Assembly (NCBI RefSeq): GCF_003334815.1
Contig: NZ_QOWO01000021.1
DNA: 64,000 bases
Strand: one strand, 5' to 3'
DNA from: Escherichia coli
GTDB taxonomy: Bacteria > Pseudomonadota > Gammaproteobacteria > Enterobacterales > Enterobacteriaceae
The notes below the pieces were generated by a model. That model searched no databases. It was given only the letters and a program-made list of their open reading frames with translations, and was not told where the DNA came from. The translations under genes were made by a program, and so were the position numbers. Below are positions 34,289-49,901 of the stretch, one piece after another. Each line of letters begins with the position of its first letter. Position 1 is the stretch's first letter.

Positions 34289-34632
34289 GATGCCCTCCAA
34301 TATGGTTATTTTTTATTGTGAATTAAGATAGGTGAGTACGACGTAAAAAGATGTGAAGCAAATCACATCAGTGTAATCGCTTACACTAACATTTATCTTA
34401 GTTATGATTTAAGTGCATGAAAATAATTGAGTTATATCATCATAGATTAAACGCTGTTATCTGCAATTAAGACTTTACTGAAAAGAAATGTAACAACTGT
34501 GAAAACCGAATAATAATATGAAAATATTACAAATCTTTGTCTGTTGTGGTTGGTGTAATCGGTTTCAGTTGTGATGATAATCTGCGGTGAAACGTGATCA
34601 GGAAGAATGATGTTATTGTGCGGGCGGTTTTT

Positions 34633-40937: not shown

Positions 40938-42929
40938 ATGTCCTCACGTAAAGAGCTTGCCAATGCTATTCGTGCGCTGAGCATGGACGCAGTACAGAAA
41001 GCCAAATCCGGTCACCCGGGTGCCCCTATGGGTATGGCTGACATTGCCGAAGTCCTGTGGCGTGATTTCCTGAAACACAACCCGCAGAATCCGTCCTGGG
41101 CTGACCGTGACCGCTTCGTGCTGTCCAACGGCCACGGCTCCATGCTGATCTACAGCCTGCTGCACCTCACCGGTTACGATCTGCCGATGGAAGAACTGAA
41201 AAACTTCCGTCAGCTGCACTCTAAAACTCCGGGTCACCCGGAAGTGGGTTACACCGCTGGTGTGGAAACCACCACCGGTCCGCTGGGTCAGGGTATTGCC
41301 AACGCAGTCGGTATGGCGATTGCAGAAAAAACGCTGGCGGCGCAGTTTAACCGTCCGGGCCACGACATTGTCGACCACTACACCTACGCCTTCATGGGCG
41401 ACGGCTGCATGATGGAAGGCATCTCCCACGAAGTTTGCTCTCTGGCGGGTACGCTGAAGCTGGGTAAACTGATTGCATTCTACGATGACAACGGTATTTC
41501 TATCGATGGTCACGTTGAAGGCTGGTTCACCGACGACACCGCAATGCGTTTCGAAGCTTACGGCTGGCACGTTATTCGCGACATCGACGGTCATGACGCG
41601 GCATCTATCAAACGCGCAGTAGAAGAAGCGCGCGCAGTGACTGACAAACCTTCCCTGCTGATGTGCAAAACCATCATCGGTTTCGGTTCCCCGAACAAAG
41701 CCGGTACCCACGACTCCCACGGTGCGCCGCTGGGCGACGCTGAAATTGCCCTGACCCGCGAACAACTGGGCTGGAAATATGCGCCGTTCGAAATCCCGTC
41801 TGAAATCTATGCTCAGTGGGATGCGAAAGAAGCAGGCCAGGCGAAAGAATCCGCATGGAACGAGAAATTCGCTGCTTACGCGAAAGCTTATCCGCAGGAA
41901 GCCGCTGAATTTACCCGCCGTATGAAAGGCGAAATGCCGTCTGACTTCGACGCTAAAGCGAAAGAGTTCATCGCTAAACTGCAGGCTAATCCGGCGAAAA
42001 TCGCCAGCCGTAAAGCGTCTCAGAATGCTATCGAAGCGTTCGGTCCGCTGTTGCCGGAATTCCTCGGCGGTTCTGCTGACCTGGCGCCGTCTAACCTGAC
42101 CCTGTGGTCTGGTTCTAAAGCAATCAACGAAGATGCTGCGGGTAACTACATCCACTACGGTGTTCGCGAGTTCGGTATGACCGCGATTGCTAACGGTATC
42201 TCCCTGCACGGTGGCTTCCTGCCGTACACCTCCACCTTCCTGATGTTCGTGGAATACGCACGTAACGCCGTACGTATGGCTGCGCTGATGAAACAGCGTC
42301 AGGTGATGGTTTACACCCACGACTCCATCGGTCTGGGCGAAGACGGCCCGACTCACCAGCCGGTTGAGCAGGTCGCTTCTCTGCGCGTAACCCCGAACAT
42401 GTCTACATGGCGTCCGTGTGACCAGGTTGAATCCGCGGTCGCGTGGAAATACGGTGTTGAGCGTCAGGACGGCCCGACCGCACTGATCCTCTCCCGTCAG
42501 AACCTGGCGCAGCAGGAACGAACTGAAGAGCAACTGGCAAACATCGCGCGCGGTGGTTATGTGCTGAAAGACTGCGCCGGTCAGCCGGAACTGATTTTCA
42601 TCGCTACCGGTTCAGAAGTTGAACTGGCTGTTGCTGCCTACGAAAAACTGACTGCCGAAGGCGTGAAAGCGCGCGTGGTGTCCATGCCGTCTACCGACGC
42701 ATTTGACAAGCAGGATGCTGCTTACCGTGAATCCGTACTGCCGAAAGCGGTTACTGCACGCGTTGCTGTAGAAGCGGGTATTGCTGACTACTGGTACAAG
42801 TATGTTGGCCTGAACGGTGCTATCGTCGGTATGACCACCTTCGGTGAATCTGCTCCGGCAGAGCTGCTGTTTGAAGAGTTCGGCTTCACTGTTGATAACG
42901 TTGTTGCGAAAGCAAAAGAACTGCTGTAA
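40938..42929 (+). CDS. tktA: Transketolase 1
   Basis: Translation from [41 protein letters not shown]... recognised as TktA. Confidence 0.96.
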
Positions 42930-42943
42930 TTAGCATTTCGGGT

Positions 42944-42971
42944 AAAAAGGTCGCTTCGGCGACCTTTTTTA
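42944..42971 (+). terminator. Intrinsic terminator of tktA
   Basis: Hairpin ggtcgc-ttcg-gcgacc followed by TTTTTT. Confidence 0.85.
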
Positions 42972-43242
42972 TTACCTTGATATGTCCGTTTGCGGACAAG
43001 CAATAGATAAGGCGTGTTGTAGATCACAAATATTTATATGCAATAAATATCAATTATGTAACATGCATCACGATATGCGTATTGACATTTGTTGTTATAT
43101 CTATAACTCAATGTTATATAAGAAATTAATAATTCACTGTTTTCAAAACACCGGTTTCCCTGCTCAATTGCTTTCATTAAACCGCACGAGTATTTTATTT
43201 TTACCGCCGGACGGTACCCTAAAAATAAAATAAGGATAATTT

Positions 43243-43686
43243 ATGCGGCTTAGTGATTATTTTCCAGAATCATCAATCTCAGTTATACATTCAGCAAAAG
43301 ATTGGCAGGAAGCTATCGATTTCTCGATGGTATCATTGCTGGATAAAAACTATATCAGCGAGAATTACATTCAGGCAATTAAAGATTCCACCATTAACAA
43401 TGGCCCTTATTATATTCTCGCACCAGGCGTGGCAATGCCTCATGCGCGACCGGAATGTGGGGCGCTTAAAACCGGGATGTCTTTGACATTACTTGAACAA
43501 GGTGTTTATTTTCCGGGGAATGACGAACCAATTAAATTACTCATCGGACTCTCTGCTGCCGATGCCGATTCGCACATTGGCGCTATTCAGGCGTTAAGTG
43601 AATTACTGTGCGAAGAAGAAATACTCGAACAACTCTTAACAGCATCATCAGAAAAACAATTAGCGGACATTATCAGCCGCGGATAA
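43243..43686 (+). CDS. cmtB: Cryptic mannitol-type PTS enzyme IIA
   Basis: Translation MRLSDYFPESSISVIHSAKDWQEAIDFSMVSLL... recognised as CmtB. Confidence 0.9.
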   Translation: MRLSDYFPESSISVIHSAKDWQEAIDFSMVSLLDKNYISENYIQAIKDSTINNGPYYILAPGVAMPHARPECGALKTGMSLTLLEQGVYFPGNDEPIKLLIGLSAADADSHIGAIQALSELLCEEEILEQLLTASSEKQLADIISRG

Positions 43687-43713
43687 TTACTCTCTCCTCT
43701 ACAGGATAATATT

Positions 43714-45102
43714 ATGGAAAACAAGTCTGCTCGTGCAAAGGTCCAGGCTTTTGGGGGCTTTTTGACTGCAATGGTCATCCCCAATATTGGTGCTTTTATT
43801 GCCTGGGGTTTTATTACTGCGTTATTTATTCCCACCGGTTGGCTGCCTAACGAACATTTCGCCAAAATTGTCGGCCCGATGATTACCTATTTATTGCCCG
43901 TGATGATTGGTTCTACAGGTGGTCATCTGGTCGGCGGTAAACGCGGGGCGGTCATGGGCGGAATAGGTACTATTGGTGTGATCGTTGGCGCAGAGATCCC
44001 GATGTTCCTTGGCTCAATGATCATGGGGCCGCTCGGTGGGTTGGTCATAAAATATGTCGATAAGGCACTGGAAAAACGCATACCTGCCGGTTTTGAGATG
44101 GTTATCAATAACTTCTCATTAGGTATCGCGGGGATGCTCCTTTGTCTGCTGGGTTTTGAAGTTATCGGCCCGGCGGTGTTAATTGCCAATACTTTCGTCA
44201 AAGAGTGTATTGAGGCGCTGGTACATGCGGGTTATCTGCCATTGTTGTCAGTCATCAATGAACCGGCGAAAGTGCTTTTCCTCAATAATGCGATCGATCA
44301 GGGCGTCTATTATCCGCTGGGAATGCAACAGGCTTCGGTTAACGGTAAATCCATCTTCTTTATGGTGGCCTCTAACCCAGGTCCGGGCCTGGGGCTGCTG
44401 CTGGCGTTTACCTTGTTTGGTAAAGGGATGAGTAAACGTTCTGCGCCCGGGGCGATGATTATTCACTTCCTCGGTGGGATCCACGAACTGTATTTCCCGT
44501 ATGTGCTGATGAAGCCGCTGACCATTATTGCCATGATTGCGGGCGGTATGTCTGGCACCTGGATGTTTAACTTACTGGACGGTGGTCTGGTGGCTGGCCC
44601 AAGTCCGGGGTCTATCTTTGCTTACCTGGCACTGACGCCGAAAGGCTCGTTCCTGGCGACAATTGCCGGTGTTACGGTAGGTACCCTGGTGTCCTTTGCT
44701 ATTACTTCGCTGATACTGAAGATGGAAAAAACGGTGGAAACGGAGAGCGAAGATGAGTTTGCTCAGTCAGCCAATGCGGTTAAGGCGATGAAACAAGAGG
44801 GTGCATTCTCGTTAAGCAGGGTTAAGCGTATCGCCTTTGTTTGCGATGCGGGGATGGGCTCCAGTGCGATGGGCGCGACCACCTTCCGTAAACGCCTGGA
44901 AAAAGCGGGGCTGGCAATTGAAGTAAAACATTACGCCATAGAAAACGTGCCTGCGGATGCGGATATCGTCGTTACTCATGCCAGTCTGGAAGGGCGCGTG
45001 AAACGTGTGACGGATAAACCACTGATATTGATTAATAACTATATTGGCGATCCAAAACTCGACACTTTATTTAATCAATTAACCGCCGAACATAAACACT
45101 GA
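43714..45102 (+). CDS. cmtA: Cryptic mannitol-type PTS enzyme IICB
   Basis: Translation MENKSARAKVQAFGGFLTAMVIPNIGAFIAWGFITALFIPTGWLP... recognised as CmtA. Confidence 0.9.
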   Translation: MENKSARAKVQAFGGFLTAMVIPNIGAFIAWGFITALFIPTGWLPNEHFAKIVGPMITYLLPVMIGSTGGHLVGGKRGAVMGGIGTIGVIVGAEIPMFLGSMIMGPLGGLVIKYVDKALEKRIPAGFEMVINNFSLGIAGMLLCLLGFEVIGPAVLIANTFVKECIEALVHAGYLPLLSVINEPAKVLFLNNAIDQGVYYPLGMQQASVNGKSIFFMVASNPGPGLGLLLAFTLFGKGMSKRSAPGAMIIHFLGGIHELYFPYVLMKPLTIIAMIAGGMSGTWMFNLLDGGLVAGPSPGSIFAYLALTPKGSFLATIAGVTVGTLVSFAITSLILKMEKTVETESEDEFAQSANAVKAMKQEGAFSLSRVKRIAFVCDAGMGSSAMGATTFRKRLEKAGLAIEVKHYAIENVPADADIVVTHASLEGRVKRVTDKPLILINNYIGDPKLDTLFNQLTAEHKH

Positions 45103-45116
45103 TTACAGAGGTAAAA

Positions 45117-46394
45117 ATGAAAACCAAAGTTGCTGCTATTTATGGCAAGCGGGATGTCCGTCTGCGCGTATTTGAACTGCCAGAAATTACCGATAATGAA
45201 TTACTGGTGAGTGTAATTTCTGACAGCGTCTGTTTATCGACCTGGAAAGCGGCGTTACTCGGTAGTGAACATAAACGCGTACCCGACGATTTAGAAAATC
45301 ATCCGGTCATTACCGGGCATGAATGTGCCGGGGTTATTGTCGAAGTGGGTAAAAATCTCACTGGCAAATATAAAAAAGGCCAGCGTTTTGTATTGCAACC
45401 GGCGATGGGGTTACCAAGCGGATATTCAGCGGGCTACAGCTACGAATATTTTGGCGGCAATGCCACTTATATGATTATTCCCGAAATCGCCATTAATTTG
45501 GGCTGCGTATTACCGTATCACGGCTCTTATTTTGCTGCGGCGTCGCTGGCAGAGCCTATGTGCTGCATTATTGGTGCTTATCATGCCAATTATCACACCA
45601 CGCAATATGTTTATGAGCATCGCATGGGCGTCAAACCTGGCGGCAATATTGCACTGCTGGCGTGTGCAGGTCCGATGGGCATTGGCGCTATCGATTACGC
45701 CATTAACGGCGGCATACAACCGTCGCGGGTGGTGGTGGTCGATATCGACGACAAACGTCTGGCGCAGGTACAGAAGCTGCTGCCGGTGGAACTGGCGGCC
45801 AGTAAAGGCATTGAGCTGGTGTATGTGAATACCAAAGGGATGAGCGATCCTGTCCAGATGCTGCGGGCGCTGACAGGAGATGCCGGGTTCGATGACATTT
45901 TTGTTTATGCGGCGGTGCCTGCTGTCGTTGAGATGGCTGATGAATTACTGGCGGAAGATGGCTGTCTGAACTTCTTTGCCGGGCCGACGGATAAAAACTT
46001 CAAAGTGCCGTTTAATTTCTACAACGTCCATTACAACAGCACGCACGTCGTCGGTACATCTGGCGGTTCAACGGACGACATGAAAGAGGCGATTGCCCTT
46101 AGCGCCACTGGGCAGTTACAGCCGTCGTTTATGGTGACCCATATCGGTGGCCTGGATGCGGTGCCAGAAACCGTGCTCAATCTGCCGGATATCCCTGGCG
46201 GTAAAAAACTCATTTATAACGGCGTGACCATGCCGCTCACTGCCATTGCCGATTTTGCCGAAAAAGGCAAAACCGATCCGCTGTTTAAAGAGTTGGCGCG
46301 GCTGGTTGAGGAAACGCACGGCATCTGGAATGAACAGGCCGAGAAATATCTGCTGGCACAATTTGGCGTTGATATCGGGGAGGCCGCGCAATGA
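45117..46394 (+). CDS. yggP: Zinc-dependent polyol/sugar-phosphate dehydrogenase-like protein YggP
   Basis: Translation MKTKVAAIYGKRDVRLRVFELPEITDNELLVSVISDSVCLSTWKAALLG... recognised as YggP. Confidence 0.88.
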   Translation: MKTKVAAIYGKRDVRLRVFELPEITDNELLVSVISDSVCLSTWKAALLGSEHKRVPDDLENHPVITGHECAGVIVEVGKNLTGKYKKGQRFVLQPAMGLPSGYSAGYSYEYFGGNATYMIIPEIAINLGCVLPYHGSYFAAASLAEPMCCIIGAYHANYHTTQYVYEHRMGVKPGGNIALLACAGPMGIGAIDYAINGGIQPSRVVVVDIDDKRLAQVQKLLPVELAASKGIELVYVNTKGMSDPVQMLRALTGDAGFDDIFVYAAVPAVVEMADELLAEDGCLNFFAGPTDKNFKVPFNFYNVHYNSTHVVGTSGGSTDDMKEAIALSATGQLQPSFMVTHIGGLDAVPETVLNLPDIPGGKKLIYNGVTMPLTAIADFAEKGKTDPLFKELARLVEETHGIWNEQAEKYLLAQFGVDIGEAAQ

Positions 46395-47356
46395 TGTCCC
46401 TGGCGTGGCCATTATTTCGCGTTACGGAACAGGCAGCGTTGGCTGCCTGGCCGCAAACCGGATGTGGCGACAAAAATAAAATTGATGGCCTGGCGGTCAC
46501 CGCGATGCGCCAGGCATTAAACGACGTCGCTTTTCGTGGACGAGTGGTTATCGGCGAAGGAGAAATTGACCATGCGCCGATGCTGTGGATTGGCGAAGAG
46601 GTGGGCAAAGGCGATGGGCCAGAAGTCGATATCGCGGTTGATCCCATTGAAGGCACGCGGATGGTGGCGATGGGGCAGAGCAATGCGCTGGCGGTCATGG
46701 CTTTCGCCCCTCGAGATAGCCTGTTACATGCGCCCGATATGTATATGAAAAAGCTGGTTGTTAATCGGCTGGCGGCGGGCGCGATTGATCTGTCTTTGCC
46801 TCTGACGGACAACCTGCGCAACGTGGCGAAAGCGTTAGGCAAACCGCTGGATAAGCTGCGCATGGTTACGCTGGATAAACCGCGCCTGAGTGCCGCGATT
46901 GAGGAAGCAACACAGCTGGGCGTGAAGGTTTTTGCCCTGCCGGATGGCGATGTCGCCGCCAGCGTGCTGACCTGCTGGCAGGATAATCCTTACGATGTGA
47001 TGTACACCATCGGCGGTGCGCCAGAAGGCGTGATTTCTGCCTGTGCCGTTAAAGCATTAGGCGGGGATATGCAGGCCGAGCTGATTGACTTTTGCCAGGC
47101 TAAAGGGGATTACACGGAAAATCGGCAGATTGCAGAGCAGGAGCGCAAGCGTTGCAAGGCAATGGGCGTTGACGTTAACCGTGTGTACTCGCTCGATGAA
47201 CTGGTGAGGGGGAACGATATCCTCTTTAGCGCTACGGGCGTGACGGGCGGTGAGCTGGTGAACGGTATCCAACAGACGGCGAATGGGGTGCGGACGCAGA
47301 CATTACTGATCGGCGGCGCGGACCAAACGTGTAATATAATAGACTCCCTGCATTGA
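46391..47356 (+). CDS. yggF: Fructose-1,6-bisphosphatase class II (GlpX paralogue)
   Basis: Translation MMSLAWPLFRVTEQAALAAWPQTGCGDKNKIDGLAVTAMRQALNDV... recognised as YggF; ATGA overlap with yggP. Confidence 0.9.
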   Translation: MMSLAWPLFRVTEQAALAAWPQTGCGDKNKIDGLAVTAMRQALNDVAFRGRVVIGEGEIDHAPMLWIGEEVGKGDGPEVDIAVDPIEGTRMVAMGQSNALAVMAFAPRDSLLHAPDMYMKKLVVNRLAAGAIDLSLPLTDNLRNVAKALGKPLDKLRMVTLDKPRLSAAIEEATQLGVKVFALPDGDVAASVLTCWQDNPYDVMYTIGGAPEGVISACAVKALGGDMQAELIDFCQAKGDYTENRQIAEQERKRCKAMGVDVNRVYSLDELVRGNDILFSATGVTGGELVNGIQQTANGVRTQTLLIGGADQTCNIIDSLH

Positions 47357-47377
47357 TGGTGATCTATCGGAAGACCA

Positions 47378-47887
47378 ATGGCGACGCTGACAGAAGATGA
47401 TGTGCTTGAGCAACTGGATGCACAGGACAATTTATTTTCATTTATGAAAACTGCGCATACCATTTTGCTCCAGGGGATACGCCAGTTTCTGCCGTCGCTG
47501 TTTGTCGATAACGATGAAGAGATCGTGGAATATGCAGTGAAGCCGTTACTCGCCCAAAGCGGCCCGCTTGACGATATTGATGTTGCACTGCGTTTGATTT
47601 ATGCGTTGGGGAAAATGGATAAATGGTTGTACGCCGATATCACGCATTTTTCCCAGTTCTGGCATTACCTGAACGAACAGGATGAAACGCCCGGATTTGC
47701 CGATGACATGACCTGGGATTTTATCAGCAACGTCAATAGCATAACCCGCAATGCGATGCTCTATGACGCGTTAAAAGCGATGAAGTTCGCTGATTTCTCC
47801 GTCTGGTCAGAGGCGCGTTTTAGCGGAATGGTCAAAACGGCGCTGACGCTGGCAGTAACGACCACCTTAAAGGAATTAACGCCGTGA
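47378..47887 (+). CDS. yggD: MtlR-like regulator YggD
   Basis: Translation MATLTEDDVLEQLDAQDNLFSFMKTAHTILLQGIRQF... recognised as YggD. Confidence 0.88.
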   Translation: MATLTEDDVLEQLDAQDNLFSFMKTAHTILLQGIRQFLPSLFVDNDEEIVEYAVKPLLAQSGPLDDIDVALRLIYALGKMDKWLYADITHFSQFWHYLNEQDETPGFADDMTWDFISNVNSITRNAMLYDALKAMKFADFSVWSEARFSGMVKTALTLAVTTTLKELTP

Positions 47888-48597
47888 AAATTGAATTAAC
47901 GGTGAATGGGCTGAAGATACAGGCACAGTACCAGAACGAAGAGATTGAAAATGTACATAAACCGTTGCTGCACATGTTGGCGGCCTTACAGACGGTAAAT
48001 CCGCAGCGGCGTACGGTGGTTTTTCTTTGCGCTCCGCCGGGGACGGGTAAATCAACCCTAACCACCTTCTGGGAATATCTCGCGCAACAAGACCCGGAAC
48101 TGCCCGCTATTCAGACGCTCCCGATGGATGGTTTTCACCATTACAATAGCTGGCTGGATGCGCATCAATTGCGCCCCTTCAAAGGCGCACCAGAGACATT
48201 TGACGTTGCGAAACTGACGGAAAATCTGCGCCAGGTCGTGGAAGGGGATTGTACGTGGCCGCAGTACGATCGACAAAAGCATGATCCTGTTGAAGATGCG
48301 TTGCACGTTACCGCACCACTCGTCATCGTCGAAGGAAACTGGTTGTTACTGGATGATGAAAAGTGGCTGGAGTTGGCATCTTTCTGCGATTTTTCTATTT
48401 TTATTCATGCACCTGCTCAAATTCTGCGGGAGCGCTTGATTAGTCGTAAAATTGCGGGAGGATTAACGCGGCAAGTAGCCGAAGCATTTTATGCCCGCAC
48501 CGATGGCCCCAATGTCGAGCGTGTGCTGATGAATAGCCGTCAGGCCAATCTGATAGTAGAGATGACTGAAGAAGGCCGGTATCACTTCACAAGCTGA
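47884..48597 (+). CDS. yggC: P-loop nucleoside/pantothenate kinase-like protein YggC
   Basis: GTG start 47884 overlapping yggD stop; Walker A PPGTGKST; recognised as YggC. Confidence 0.88.
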   Translation: MKIELTVNGLKIQAQYQNEEIENVHKPLLHMLAALQTVNPQRRTVVFLCAPPGTGKSTLTTFWEYLAQQDPELPAIQTLPMDGFHHYNSWLDAHQLRPFKGAPETFDVAKLTENLRQVVEGDCTWPQYDRQKHDPVEDALHVTAPLVIVEGNWLLLDDEKWLELASFCDFSIFIHAPAQILRERLISRKIAGGLTRQVAEAFYARTDGPNVERVLMNSRQANLIVEMTEEGRYHFTS

Positions 48598-48881
48598 CAA
48601 TTTATTCCAGTTATTGTAGGGTTATTATTACGCCAGCCTGGAATAAAGCTTCCCACAAAAGGGGATAAAAGTGTGATGTGAGTCAGATAAATGTCTTCTT
48701 CGGCTGGACAAACATTCCTTTTATTCCACGTTTCGCTTATCCTAGCTGAAGCGTTTCAGTCGATTAAATGTTCGACAATTAACCAATCAGTCGCAGTTTG
48801 CGACAGGTAAGGTTTCCCCGGACGATTTGCTGGATTACTCTGTCTGGCAAATTTGCTCAGGGAAAACCTTGCAGGAGATCT

Positions 48882-49901
48882 ATGACCGTACGCGTAGCGA
48901 TAAATGGCTTCGGTCGCATCGGGCGTAATGTGGTTCGTGCTTTGTATGAATCCGGACGCCGGGCGGAAATTACCGTGGTGGCAATCAACGAACTGGCGGA
49001 TGCTGCGGGCATGGCGCATTTGTTGAAATATGACACCAGCCATGGCCGTTTTGCATGGGAAGTACGACAGGAACGCGATCAACTTTTTGTTGGTGATGAC
49101 GCCATCCGCGTATTGCATGAACGTTCACTGCAATCGCTCCCCTGGCGTGAACTTGGCGTTGATGTAGTCCTCGACTGCACCGGCGTATATGGCTCCCGCG
49201 AGCATGGCGAAGCGCATATTGCCGCCGGGGCCAAAAAAGTGCTCTTTTCACATCCTGGCAGTAACGATCTCGACGCGACCGTTGTTTACGGCGTCAATCA
49301 GGATCAACTTCGTGCGGAACACCGCATCGTTTCTAACGCTTCCTGTACCACGAATTGCATAATTCCCGTCATCAAATTGTTAGATGATGCGTACGGTATT
49401 GAGTCCGGCACTGTGACCACAATTCACTCCGCCATGCACGATCAACAGGTTATTGATGCATACCATCCTGACCTGCGTCGCACCCGGGCAGCCAGCCAGT
49501 CGATCATTCCGGTCGATACTAAACTGGCCGCCGGTATCACACGATTTTTTCCGCAATTTAACGATCGCTTTGAAGCGATTGCGGTACGTGTGCCAACCAT
49601 AAATGTGACGGCAATCGATTTAAGCGTGACGGTGAAGAAACCTGTAAAAGCCAATGAAGTCAACCTGTTGCTGCAAAAAGCAGCACAAGGTGCATTTCAT
49701 GGTATAGTTGACTATACGGAATTGCCGTTGGTCTCTGTAGATTTTAACCACGATCCGCACAGTGCCATTGTCGATGGCACCCAAACCCGGGTCAGTGGCG
49801 CACACCTGATCAAAACGTTGGTCTGGTGCGATAACGAATGGGGCTTTGCTAACCGAATGCTCGACACGACGTTAGCTATGGCTACTGTTGCTTTCAGGTA
49901 A
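48882..49901 (+). CDS. epd: D-erythrose-4-phosphate dehydrogenase
   Basis: Translation from [55 protein letters not shown]... recognised as Epd/GapB. Confidence 0.94.

Follow-up and report, generated by a model that had tools for sequence, protein, structure and literature searches.

What does the six-gene block cmtB-cmtA-yggP-yggF-yggD-yggC do for Escherichia coli? The block occupies positions 43243-48597, on the plus strand, of a 64,000-nucleotide stretch of E. coli contig NZ_QOWO01000021.1 (the window). Its sequence matches the same region of E. coli K-12 MG1655 with 100% identity, and the six genes are likewise those annotated in RefSeq. It is among the few K-12 phosphotransferase system (PTS) clusters that have no assigned substrate; an earlier note on this DNA had called the substrate still unknown, and our full-text literature searches likewise found no published substrate or pathway. 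We propose, with a probability of roughly 45%, that the block is one CRP-dependent, PTS-fed catabolic operon for a mannitol-like hexitol, controlled by an MtlR-type switch. The six genes have long been known; the proposed pathway and its control, which were not found in the literature searched, are new and testable hypotheses. The open reading frames (ORFs) are:

cmtB, 43243..43686, plus strand: PTS EIIA of mannitol/fructose type, 147 aa, with His67 in the motif PHARPE
cmtA, 43714..45102, plus strand: PTS EIICB, MtlA-type
yggP, 45117..46394, plus strand: 425-aa zinc-dependent medium-chain dehydrogenase/reductase (MDR) of the SorE (ketose-1-phosphate reductase) family
yggF, 46391..47356, plus strand: class II (GlpX-type) fructose-1,6-bisphosphatase (FBPase); its start overlaps the yggP stop
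yggD (RefSeq fumE), 47378..47887, plus strand: MtlR-family all-helical protein, 169 aa, pI 4.3
yggC, 47884..48597, plus strand: P-loop kinase of the PRK/uridine-kinase/PanK family; its GTG start overlaps the yggD stop

The earlier note had described the gene content, gene order, overlaps and glycolytic neighbours correctly, as ORF coordinates, identity to MG1655 and NCBIfam families confirm. All six ORFs lie on the plus strand, at the coordinates that the earlier note gave. They are separated, in order, by 27, 14, -4, 21 and -4 bp; the yggP stop and yggF start share ATGA at 46391-46394, and the yggD stop and yggC start share GTGA at 47884-47887. Upstream lies tktA (40938-42929), and downstream lies epd (48882-49901), followed by pgk and fbaA, so that fbaA is three genes downstream. 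Terminator-like sites within the block showed no excess over shuffles in a promoter/terminator scan, which overall returned no more matches than shuffles and missed the tktA terminator described below. We infer from this layout that cmtBA-yggPFDC is likely to form a single operon. RefSeq names the products PTS mannitol IIA (cmtB), PTS IICB (cmtA), zinc-binding dehydrogenase (yggP), glpX-like class II FBPase (yggF), 'fumarase E' (yggD, now fumE) and nucleoside/nucleotide kinase family protein (yggC). We assigned families with NCBIfam models and their curated cut-offs, and every product except YggP scored above cut-off in the family that the earlier note had named.

With respect to transport, CmtB matches the PTS mannitol IIA model NF007358 with 326 bits (cut-off 192), with weak matches to fructose IIA models as well. 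By family analogy, His67 would be the phosphorylated histidine. CmtA shares 53% identity with E. coli MtlA and passes the cut-offs of the MtlA-type IIC and IICB models (TIGR00851, 480 bits against 468.4; NF011663, 593 against 589). Its IIB loop, C377-DAGMGSSAMGA (CDAGMGSSAMGA), is the same as the C384 loop of MtlA, which is the loop that binds MtlR. By sequence, CmtB and CmtA are an MtlA-type EIIA and EIICB pair, for which mannitol transport is putative.

The dehydrogenase YggP matches only zinc-dependent MDR models in NCBIfam, all of them below cut-off. For the comparison with SorE, we searched a plasmid collection that includes chromosome-size records. YggP shares 45.8% identity with Klebsiella pneumoniae SorE over 98% of its length (E = 4e-114) and 42% with the enzyme of the Lactobacillus plantarum sor operon, while matches beyond the SorE type in this collection reached at most 29%. 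The matched K. pneumoniae sorE sits in a canonical sorCDFBAM-E operon, in the order regulator, short-chain dehydrogenase/reductase (SDR), IIA, IIB, IIC, IID and sorE. The zinc ligands C39, H68, E69 and E146, together with G185 and G188, are invariant in all 82 family sequences, and D209 is an Asp in 79 and a Glu in 3. We had considered Asp209 as a clue to NAD+ use and the oxidative direction and dropped it, since SorE carries the same Asp and the residue is therefore uninformative on the direction of the YggP reaction. Linkage of yggP to a mannose-type sorbose PTS or to SorD was not found; YggP adjoins an Mtl-type PTS and a kinase instead, which makes it a paralogue of SorE rather than SorE itself. 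SorE converts L-sorbose-1-phosphate to D-glucitol-6-phosphate and thus acts at the carbon adjacent to the phosphorylated one. D-mannitol-1-phosphate and D-glucitol-6-phosphate have the same three stereocentres nearest the phosphate and differ only at the farthest. The reverse of the SorE reaction on mannitol-1-phosphate would therefore yield D-fructose-1-phosphate.

To place YggP in its genomic contexts, we took 80 YggP loci from species-representative genomes, called and clustered their ORFs and annotated the recurrent families. Orthologues with 59-99% identity occur in Enterobacterales, Vibrionaceae and Firmicutes. The family counts are YggP 80, IIA 58, IICB 57, YggC 56, YggD 38, YggF 20, PRD regulator 16 and PHP 14. 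The recurrent arrangements are:

E. coli-type Enterobacterales: IIA-IICB-YggP-YggF-YggD-YggC
Rahnella and Budvicia: IIA-IICB-YggP-YggD-YggC, with no YggF
Vibrionaceae: IIA-IICB-YggP-YggD-YggC-PHP (YcdX-like, PRK09248)
Firmicutes: PRD regulator-IIA-YggC-IICB-YggP, sometimes with a pyrophosphate-dependent phosphofructokinase (PPi-PFK)
Anaerostipes: DeoR regulator, then YggC-YggP-class II fructose-1,6-bisphosphate (FBP) aldolase

YggC adjoins YggP in 56 of the 80 loci, 50 of them with an Mtl-type PTS and 6 without. The conserved core across Enterobacterales, Vibrionaceae and Firmicutes is thus YggP plus YggC, usually with an Mtl-type EIIA and EIICB. Three accessory neighbours act on FBP: FBPase II (20 loci), PPi-PFK (529 bits against 273) and, in Anaerostipes, the class II FBP aldolase that follows YggP immediately (397 against 343). 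A fourth, the YcdX-like PHP phosphoesterase of 14 Vibrionaceae loci, may do so.

In a neighbour-joining tree, the YggC-linked YggP clade is sister to two other clades. The operons of the first read IICB-PRD regulator-IIA-(1-phosphofructokinase)-YggP-like-HPr-EI and contain no mtlD. The PfkB kinase that precedes the YggP homologue scores 332 bits, against a 1-phosphofructokinase equivalog cut-off of 292. Up to that point the order is that of the classical Firmicutes mtlA-mtlR-mtlF-mtlD operon, with FruK and the YggP-like dehydrogenase in the place of MtlD. In the second sister clade, the YggP-like gene accompanies an E1/E2/E3 complex and evidently serves a different role.

Members of this second clade are Clostridial YggP-like genes with 55-58% identity (L061, L062, L068, L069, L073, L074, L077, L078 and L083; for example, L068:10001-18162). 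Their clusters encode a fused E1 alpha/beta (823 aa), E2 and E3 resembling a 2-oxoacid/acetoin dehydrogenase complex, a lipoate ligase/synthase, an SDR resembling sorbitol-6-phosphate dehydrogenase, a class-II-aldolase-like protein, a DeoR regulator and a 430-aa PHP-like protein with no NCBIfam match. The assembly looks like an uncharacterised sugar-phosphate pathway.

The kinase YggC matches the nucleoside/nucleotide-kinase-family model NF006742 with 504 bits (cut-off 402). It carries a Walker A motif, APPGTGKST, at residue 50, and its orthologues match Pfam PRK. The nearest solved structure is 3c8u, deposited as 'fructokinase' (E = 5e-21); no PfkB match was found among the NCBIfam models. 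A comparative-genomics paper of 2011 predicted a 'sugar/polyol kinase', listed as 'in progress'. The case for YggC as a 1-phosphofructokinase comes solely from its positional swap with a true 1-phosphofructokinase in the sister clade, by which it would be a functional analogue at most. YggF scores 588 bits against the GlpX equivalog TIGR00330 (cut-off 259) and matches GlpX structures with E = 5e-111. Its FBPase activity, less efficient than that of Fbp, is attributed to Brown et al. (2009) by a later paper.

Taken in the order of a pathway, these proteins would work as follows. CmtAB would import the substrate as a hexitol-1-phosphate, most likely D-mannitol-1-phosphate. YggP would oxidise the carbon beside the phosphorylated one, in the reverse of the SorE reaction, to a ketose-1-phosphate, most likely fructose-1-phosphate, which YggC, in a 1-phosphofructokinase role, would phosphorylate to the 1,6-bisphosphate. 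The neighbouring FbaA would cleave the bisphosphate, and YggF would turn part of it back into fructose-6-phosphate for biosynthesis, the role proposed for GlpX in glpFKX. A kinase must first add a second phosphate to a ketose-1-phosphate if an aldolase is to use it, which would explain the constant presence of a kinase, YggC or FruK, beside the dehydrogenase.

Parts of this route resemble known systems. The fruBKA system shares the proposed fructose-1-phosphate intermediate and its phosphorylation to FBP, but the sequence of YggC shows no relation to FruK, a PfkB-family enzyme. As in glpFKX, an FBPase II is part of a catabolic operon that feeds carbon in at the level of FBP or below, although the partner genes differ. 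The gatYZABCD pathway follows the same succession of a PTS-derived hexitol-1-phosphate, a zinc-dependent MDR dehydrogenase, a ketose phosphate, a kinase, a ketose-1,6-bisphosphate and a class II aldolase. However, GatD oxidises a carbon remote from the phosphate to give tagatose-6-phosphate, annotated galactitol-1-phosphate dehydrogenases are only about 25% identical to YggP, and gat has a galactitol-family PTS and its own aldolase. The sorCDFBAME operons of K. pneumoniae, E. coli ST131 and Lactobacilli share with the block the zinc ligands, length class and C-terminal extension of SorE and YggP. They differ in having a mannose-family PTS, the regulator SorC, the SDR SorD and neither kinase nor phosphatase, and the reaction proposed for YggP runs opposite to that of SorE.

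The second part of the proposal concerns control, and it begins at the promoter. The elements upstream of cmtB are:

tktA intrinsic terminator, 42944..42973, plus strand: a stem with a UUCG loop followed by a U run; -19.2 kcal/mol, z = -4.2, with 0 of 200 shuffles as stable
CRP site 1, 43013..43028, centre 43020.5, no strand assigned: CGTGTTGTAGATCACA, 2 mismatches to TGTGAN6TCACA
CRP site 2, 43057..43072, centre 43064.5, no strand assigned: TGTAACATGCATCACG, 2 mismatches; the predicted docking platform for YggD and possibly for MtlR
Possible -35 element TTGACA, 43082..43087, plus strand: a suggestion from sequence only

The terminator is predicted to shield the cmt promoter from tktA. Published work has established that CRP binds at the cmtB promoter and activates it: cmtB is a target in CRP SELEX, the promoter is weaker in a crp mutant, and CRP ChIP-seq in enterotoxigenic E. 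coli (ETEC) H10407 reported the site TGTGATCTACAACACG for cmtB, which is the reverse complement of our CRP site 1. A sigma-70 promoter could not be placed with confidence upstream of cmtB, where the promoter scan did no better than shuffles. When orthologous promoters are stacked, the TTG of TTGACA falls 10-12 nt after CRP site 2 in almost all genera.

The centres of the two CRP sites are exactly 44 bp apart. We scanned for TGTGAN6TCACA and defined a pair by a summed mismatch of at most 4 and a spacing of 43-46 bp. The pair upstream of cmtB is the only one in the window, and the same scan recovers the published spacings of the E. coli mtl operator (43/44/73/44). Of 24 Enterobacterales loci, 17 have the pair at 44 bp and 5 at 45 bp, 22 in all. 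No other spacing is seen in more than 4 loci, except for 42 bp in 8 loci, which is due to a third site further upstream. In 1.40 Mb of loci, the scan returned 22 pairs, of which 17 precede cmtB orthologues, 4 precede Rahnella mtlA and 1 lies elsewhere. Dinucleotide shuffles reached the observed pair quality in at most 1 of 2000 trials per locus. The distance of the pair to the ATG varies by genus from -76 to -291, and the spacer between the sites is unconserved among genera while the half-sites are conserved. In Limnobaculum, both sites are a perfect consensus.

The K-12 sites, with 2+2 mismatches (3+2 in SCPM-O-B-8794), are the poorest matches to consensus among the genera compared (with L005, L008, L012 and L020), several of which have 0-1 mismatch. 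Judged from their sequence, the poor E. coli sites could contribute to the low expression behind the label 'cryptic'.

A paper of July 2026 gives this spacing its significance. It reports that MtlR lacks a DNA-binding domain and that it represses mtl when it docks on a pair of CRP dimers bound at sites 43-46 bp apart, best at 44-45 bp. R167 and L178 of MtlR are required, and their mutation abolishes docking on CRP. Dephosphorylated MtlA IIB sequesters MtlR, which binds it through an acidic surface. YggD and cmt are not mentioned in that paper.

YggD belongs to the same family as MtlR. It scores 333 bits (cut-off 167) against the YggD-type 'putative regulator' equivalog and 89 bits against the MtlR subfamily model, below the cut-off of 149, which makes it a paralogue of MtlR. 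Its closest chain in the PDB is Shigella YggD (3c8g, E = 4e-108), with MtlR structures behind (6kcr, 3e-12; 3brj, 5e-9), and an Aliivibrio YggD orthologue matches Pfam MtlR. When two MtlR and seven YggD sequences (24-30% identity) are aligned, only 18 columns are invariant, among them R167 and L178 of MtlR, which are R147 and L158 in YggD. Additionally, YggD is acidic (pI 4.3), like the IIB-binding surface of MtlR. In each of the 38 loci that have it, YggD stands between YggP/YggF and YggC, and none of these loci has a PRD regulator; in Firmicutes, PRD-type regulators fill the regulator slot instead.

Given a CRP pair at the spacing used by MtlR, retained docking residues and the same IIB loop in the transporter, YggD is probably a second MtlR-type anti-activator, one for the cmt operon. 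A YggD dimer would dock on the two CRP dimers upstream of cmtB and block activation. During transport of the substrate, dephosphorylated CmtA IIB would sequester YggD, and the operon would be switched on. An empty YggD ChIP-exo experiment fits a protein without a DNA-binding domain; given the growth conditions and the indirect contact with DNA, this negative result is uninformative. MtlR recognises the spacing only, so MtlR may repress cmt as well.

Compared with E. coli mtlA-mtlD-mtlR, the block shares the Mtl-type PTS, the IIB active-site loop, an MtlR-family regulator without a DNA-binding domain and a CRP-dependent promoter with tandem CRP sites 44 bp apart. In contrast, the cmt EIIA is a separate protein encoded first, and MtlD is replaced by a SorE-type zinc dehydrogenase, a P-loop kinase and an FBPase. 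YggD is 28% identical to MtlR and lacks about 25 N-terminal residues, and cmt has one CRP pair, with a third site in some genera, where mtl has five sites. Both systems are found side by side in Rahnella (L023 and L024, 12600-17800), where a dsbA-like gene separates a cmt-type cluster that lacks yggF from a true mtlA-mtlD-mtlR downstream. The Rahnella mtlA promoter has two 44-bp CRP pairs 73 bp apart, as in the E. coli mtl operator.

Several observations weigh against this reading of the block. E. coli K-12 without mtlA or mtlD does not use mannitol. Furthermore, mtlADR is present in most species that carry the cluster, which speaks for a substrate that is not plain mannitol, or for use in another niche. 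A mannitol phenotype described in 2024 required mtlA and not cmtA. In a 2025 screen of a PcmtA-gfp reporter on 198 Biolog compounds, by which the induction assays suggested in the earlier note are already published in part, mannitol was tested and not reported as an inducer. The regiochemistry of YggP is extrapolated from 46% identity to SorE. The FruK-linked operons belong to a sister clade rather than to the YggC clade, and a clade of similar identity linked to a 2-oxoacid-dehydrogenase-like complex shows that function drifts in the YggP family. A phosphatase that acts after the kinase could serve a phosphate shift rather than the supply of FBP. With respect to control, the alignment of YggD to E. 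coli-type MtlR in the PDB covers residues 6-112 only, and fumarase activity of YggD in vitro is reported second-hand. The tandem CRP pattern is also much weaker in Vibrionaceae, which is consistent with the divergence outside Enterobacterales reported in the MtlR paper. With these points in view, we advance only tentatively, as a claim that leans towards the doubtful, the specific combination of a novel hexitol route (SorE-type oxidation with YggC as a non-homologous 1-phosphofructokinase) and YggD as a second natural CRP-docking anti-activator.

Chief among the rivals is a phosphate-shift pathway that would serve another polyol or ketose; we consider it unlikely. Here the PTS would deliver X-1-phosphate and YggP a ketose-1-phosphate or pentulose-1-phosphate that no aldolase takes; YggC would add a phosphate at the far end, and a phosphatase (YggF, PHP or a reversible PPi-PFK) would remove the first, so that a 6- or 5-phosphate enters glycolysis or the pentose-phosphate pathway. 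An example would be D-arabitol, processed through xylulose-1,5-bisphosphate to xylulose-5-phosphate next to tktA. Such a shift would suit the sharing of one accessory slot across lineages by three unrelated candidates for a 1,6-bisphosphate to 6-phosphate enzyme (GlpX-type, PHP and PPi-PFK), and it would suit the membership of YggC in the Pfam PRK (phosphoribulokinase/uridine kinase) family. It also draws on the position of tkt right in front of the cluster in Enterobacterales and three Vibrionaceae loci, and on the coexisting mtlADR, which favours a substrate other than mannitol. However, the phosphatase is absent from Rahnella, Budvicia and most Firmicutes clusters, and is therefore accessory rather than core. 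The 1-phosphofructokinase and class II FBP aldolase neighbours pass equivalog cut-offs and are specific for fructose phosphates, YggF is a demonstrated FBPase according to the citing paper mentioned above, and the closeness of CmtA to MtlA also speaks against another substrate.

A different objection applies to the switch alone. YggD could be a metabolic enzyme, as its RefSeq name says, with no dedicated regulator in the block and a CRP pair that serves CRP alone or a co-regulator such as CytR or MtlR; we hold this to be improbable. MtlR accepts any CRP pair at 43-46 bp and could by itself use the sites at cmtB. Nucleosides recall CytR regulons: the 2025 screen found no specific sugar inducer, and uridine and other nucleosides were the strongest inducers of PcmtA-gfp, whose expression depended on CRP. 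However, uridine also induced 13 other transporter promoters, and a response of 14 promoters indicates a general CRP effect. We rejected uridine as the true inducer, to which the membership of YggC in the uridine-kinase superfamily had pointed, on these grounds, and because YggC scores only 37 bits against a uridine-kinase cut-off of 180. We likewise rejected CytR-type co-regulation, since the unconserved spacer means that no CytR-type operator is preserved. As to an enzymatic role, a source that reports no DNA-binding peaks in ChIP-exo calls YggD 'verified as fumarase E'. Searches for a fumarase-family match in NCBIfam and the PDB returned only YggD/MtlR models and chains, and an enzyme reading would leave unexplained both the fixed position in the 38 loci without a PRD regulator and the two docking residues among the 18 invariant columns. 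The description of yggD as an MtlR-like regulator in the earlier note is thus the one best supported by context, although it departs from the official name; the label 'fumarase E' probably misses the main role of YggD.

Turning back to YggP, the reaction could run in the reductive direction, as in SorE. CmtAB would then import a ketose as its 1-phosphate, YggP would reduce it to a hexitol-6-phosphate that SrlD or MtlD oxidises, and YggC and YggF would play side or regulatory parts. This is the direction in which the only relatives of YggP that have been characterised work in vivo, and the PTS family includes fructose transporters, with CmtB weakly matching the fructose IIA models. However, the second dehydrogenase is absent from the cluster, whereas sor operons carry SorD, and the kinase, the most tightly linked partner of YggP, is left unexplained. 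The IIC domain is MtlA-type, above the TIGR00851 cut-off, rather than FruA-type, and the Clostridia operon architecture copies mtlARF-D. We therefore regard a reductive pathway as quite improbable, and the oxidative route through fructose-1-phosphate as the preferred one.

The earlier note also called the block cryptic, a word that should not be taken to mean decay. The ratio of nonsynonymous to synonymous substitution rates (dN/dS) against E. albertii is 0.02-0.16 across all six genes (0.016 for tktA and 0.042 for epd), so the genes are under selection and not decaying. The block is present in all 5426 of 5426 complete E. coli genomes, with at least 80% coverage in 5389 and less than 80% in 37. 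That it is a remnant without present function in E. coli is very improbable: neither a growth phenotype nor an inducer is known, none of the genera compared has weaker CRP sites than E. coli and partial loss or IS1 insertion occurs occasionally, but six intact ORFs are held under purifying selection comparable to that of tktA and epd in every complete genome, synteny and promoter architecture are kept across Enterobacterales, and published deletions have phenotypes (a higher tobramycin minimum inhibitory concentration for ΔcmtA and poorer growth in glycerol fermentation for ΔyggF).

In strain PSJ-07 (NZ_AP027619.1, 790203-796334), IS1A cuts the block into two pieces; given the 37 genomes with less than 80% coverage, the block is inactivated now and then in E. 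coli. The GC content of the block is 0.46-0.57, except for the promoter/cmtB stretch (0.38). We rejected recent horizontal acquisition, as GC is ordinary outside the AT-rich promoter and the tkt-epd synteny is common across Enterobacterales.

Other features lie within the block or near it. A sigma-54 site reported by ChIP-seq, CTGGCGGCAATATTGCA, lies inside yggP at 45637-45653 on the plus strand, in sense orientation and 744 bp before yggF. Downstream, the 284-bp spacer between yggC and epd contains a CRP site with one mismatch (TGTGATGTGAGTCAGA, window positions 48672-48687) some 200 bp ahead of where epd begins. There is no obvious terminator behind yggC, and transcription may therefore continue into epd-pgk-fbaA. 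In E. albertii, Citrobacter, Superficieibacter and Phytobacter (L005, L006, L007, L010, L011, L013, L017 and L022), yggC and epd are separated by an insert of one or more minus-strand ABC ATPase genes, in most cases accompanied by two membrane proteins and a 141-aa protein; judged from its sequences, the insert, which E. coli lacks, looks like an ECF-type transporter. Transketolase immediately precedes the cluster in three Vibrionaceae genomes (L027, L041 and L043), as in Enterobacterales; the linkage of tkt and cmt may be old, or the tkt-epd-pgk-fba region may hold a common insertion point. Elsewhere in the window, a perfect CRP consensus (TGTGAAGCAAATCACA, 34352-34367) just upstream of galP matches the published galP CRP site when read as its reverse complement, and so is already known.

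If the proposal is true, it would give functions to four y-genes, provide a new enzyme family for the 1-phosphofructokinase function and supply a reason for the FBPase II embedded in the cluster. The annotations 'fumarase E' and 'nucleoside/nucleotide kinase family protein' may mislead. With respect to regulation, cmt would present a second, independently evolved switch based on CRP docking and membrane sequestration, after that of MtlR described in 2026. The mtl operator would then not be the sole example of this architecture in E. coli. As MtlR needs only the spacing, the MtlR paper's own rule predicts binding of MtlR at cmtB, and MtlR and YggD might cross-regulate both operons.

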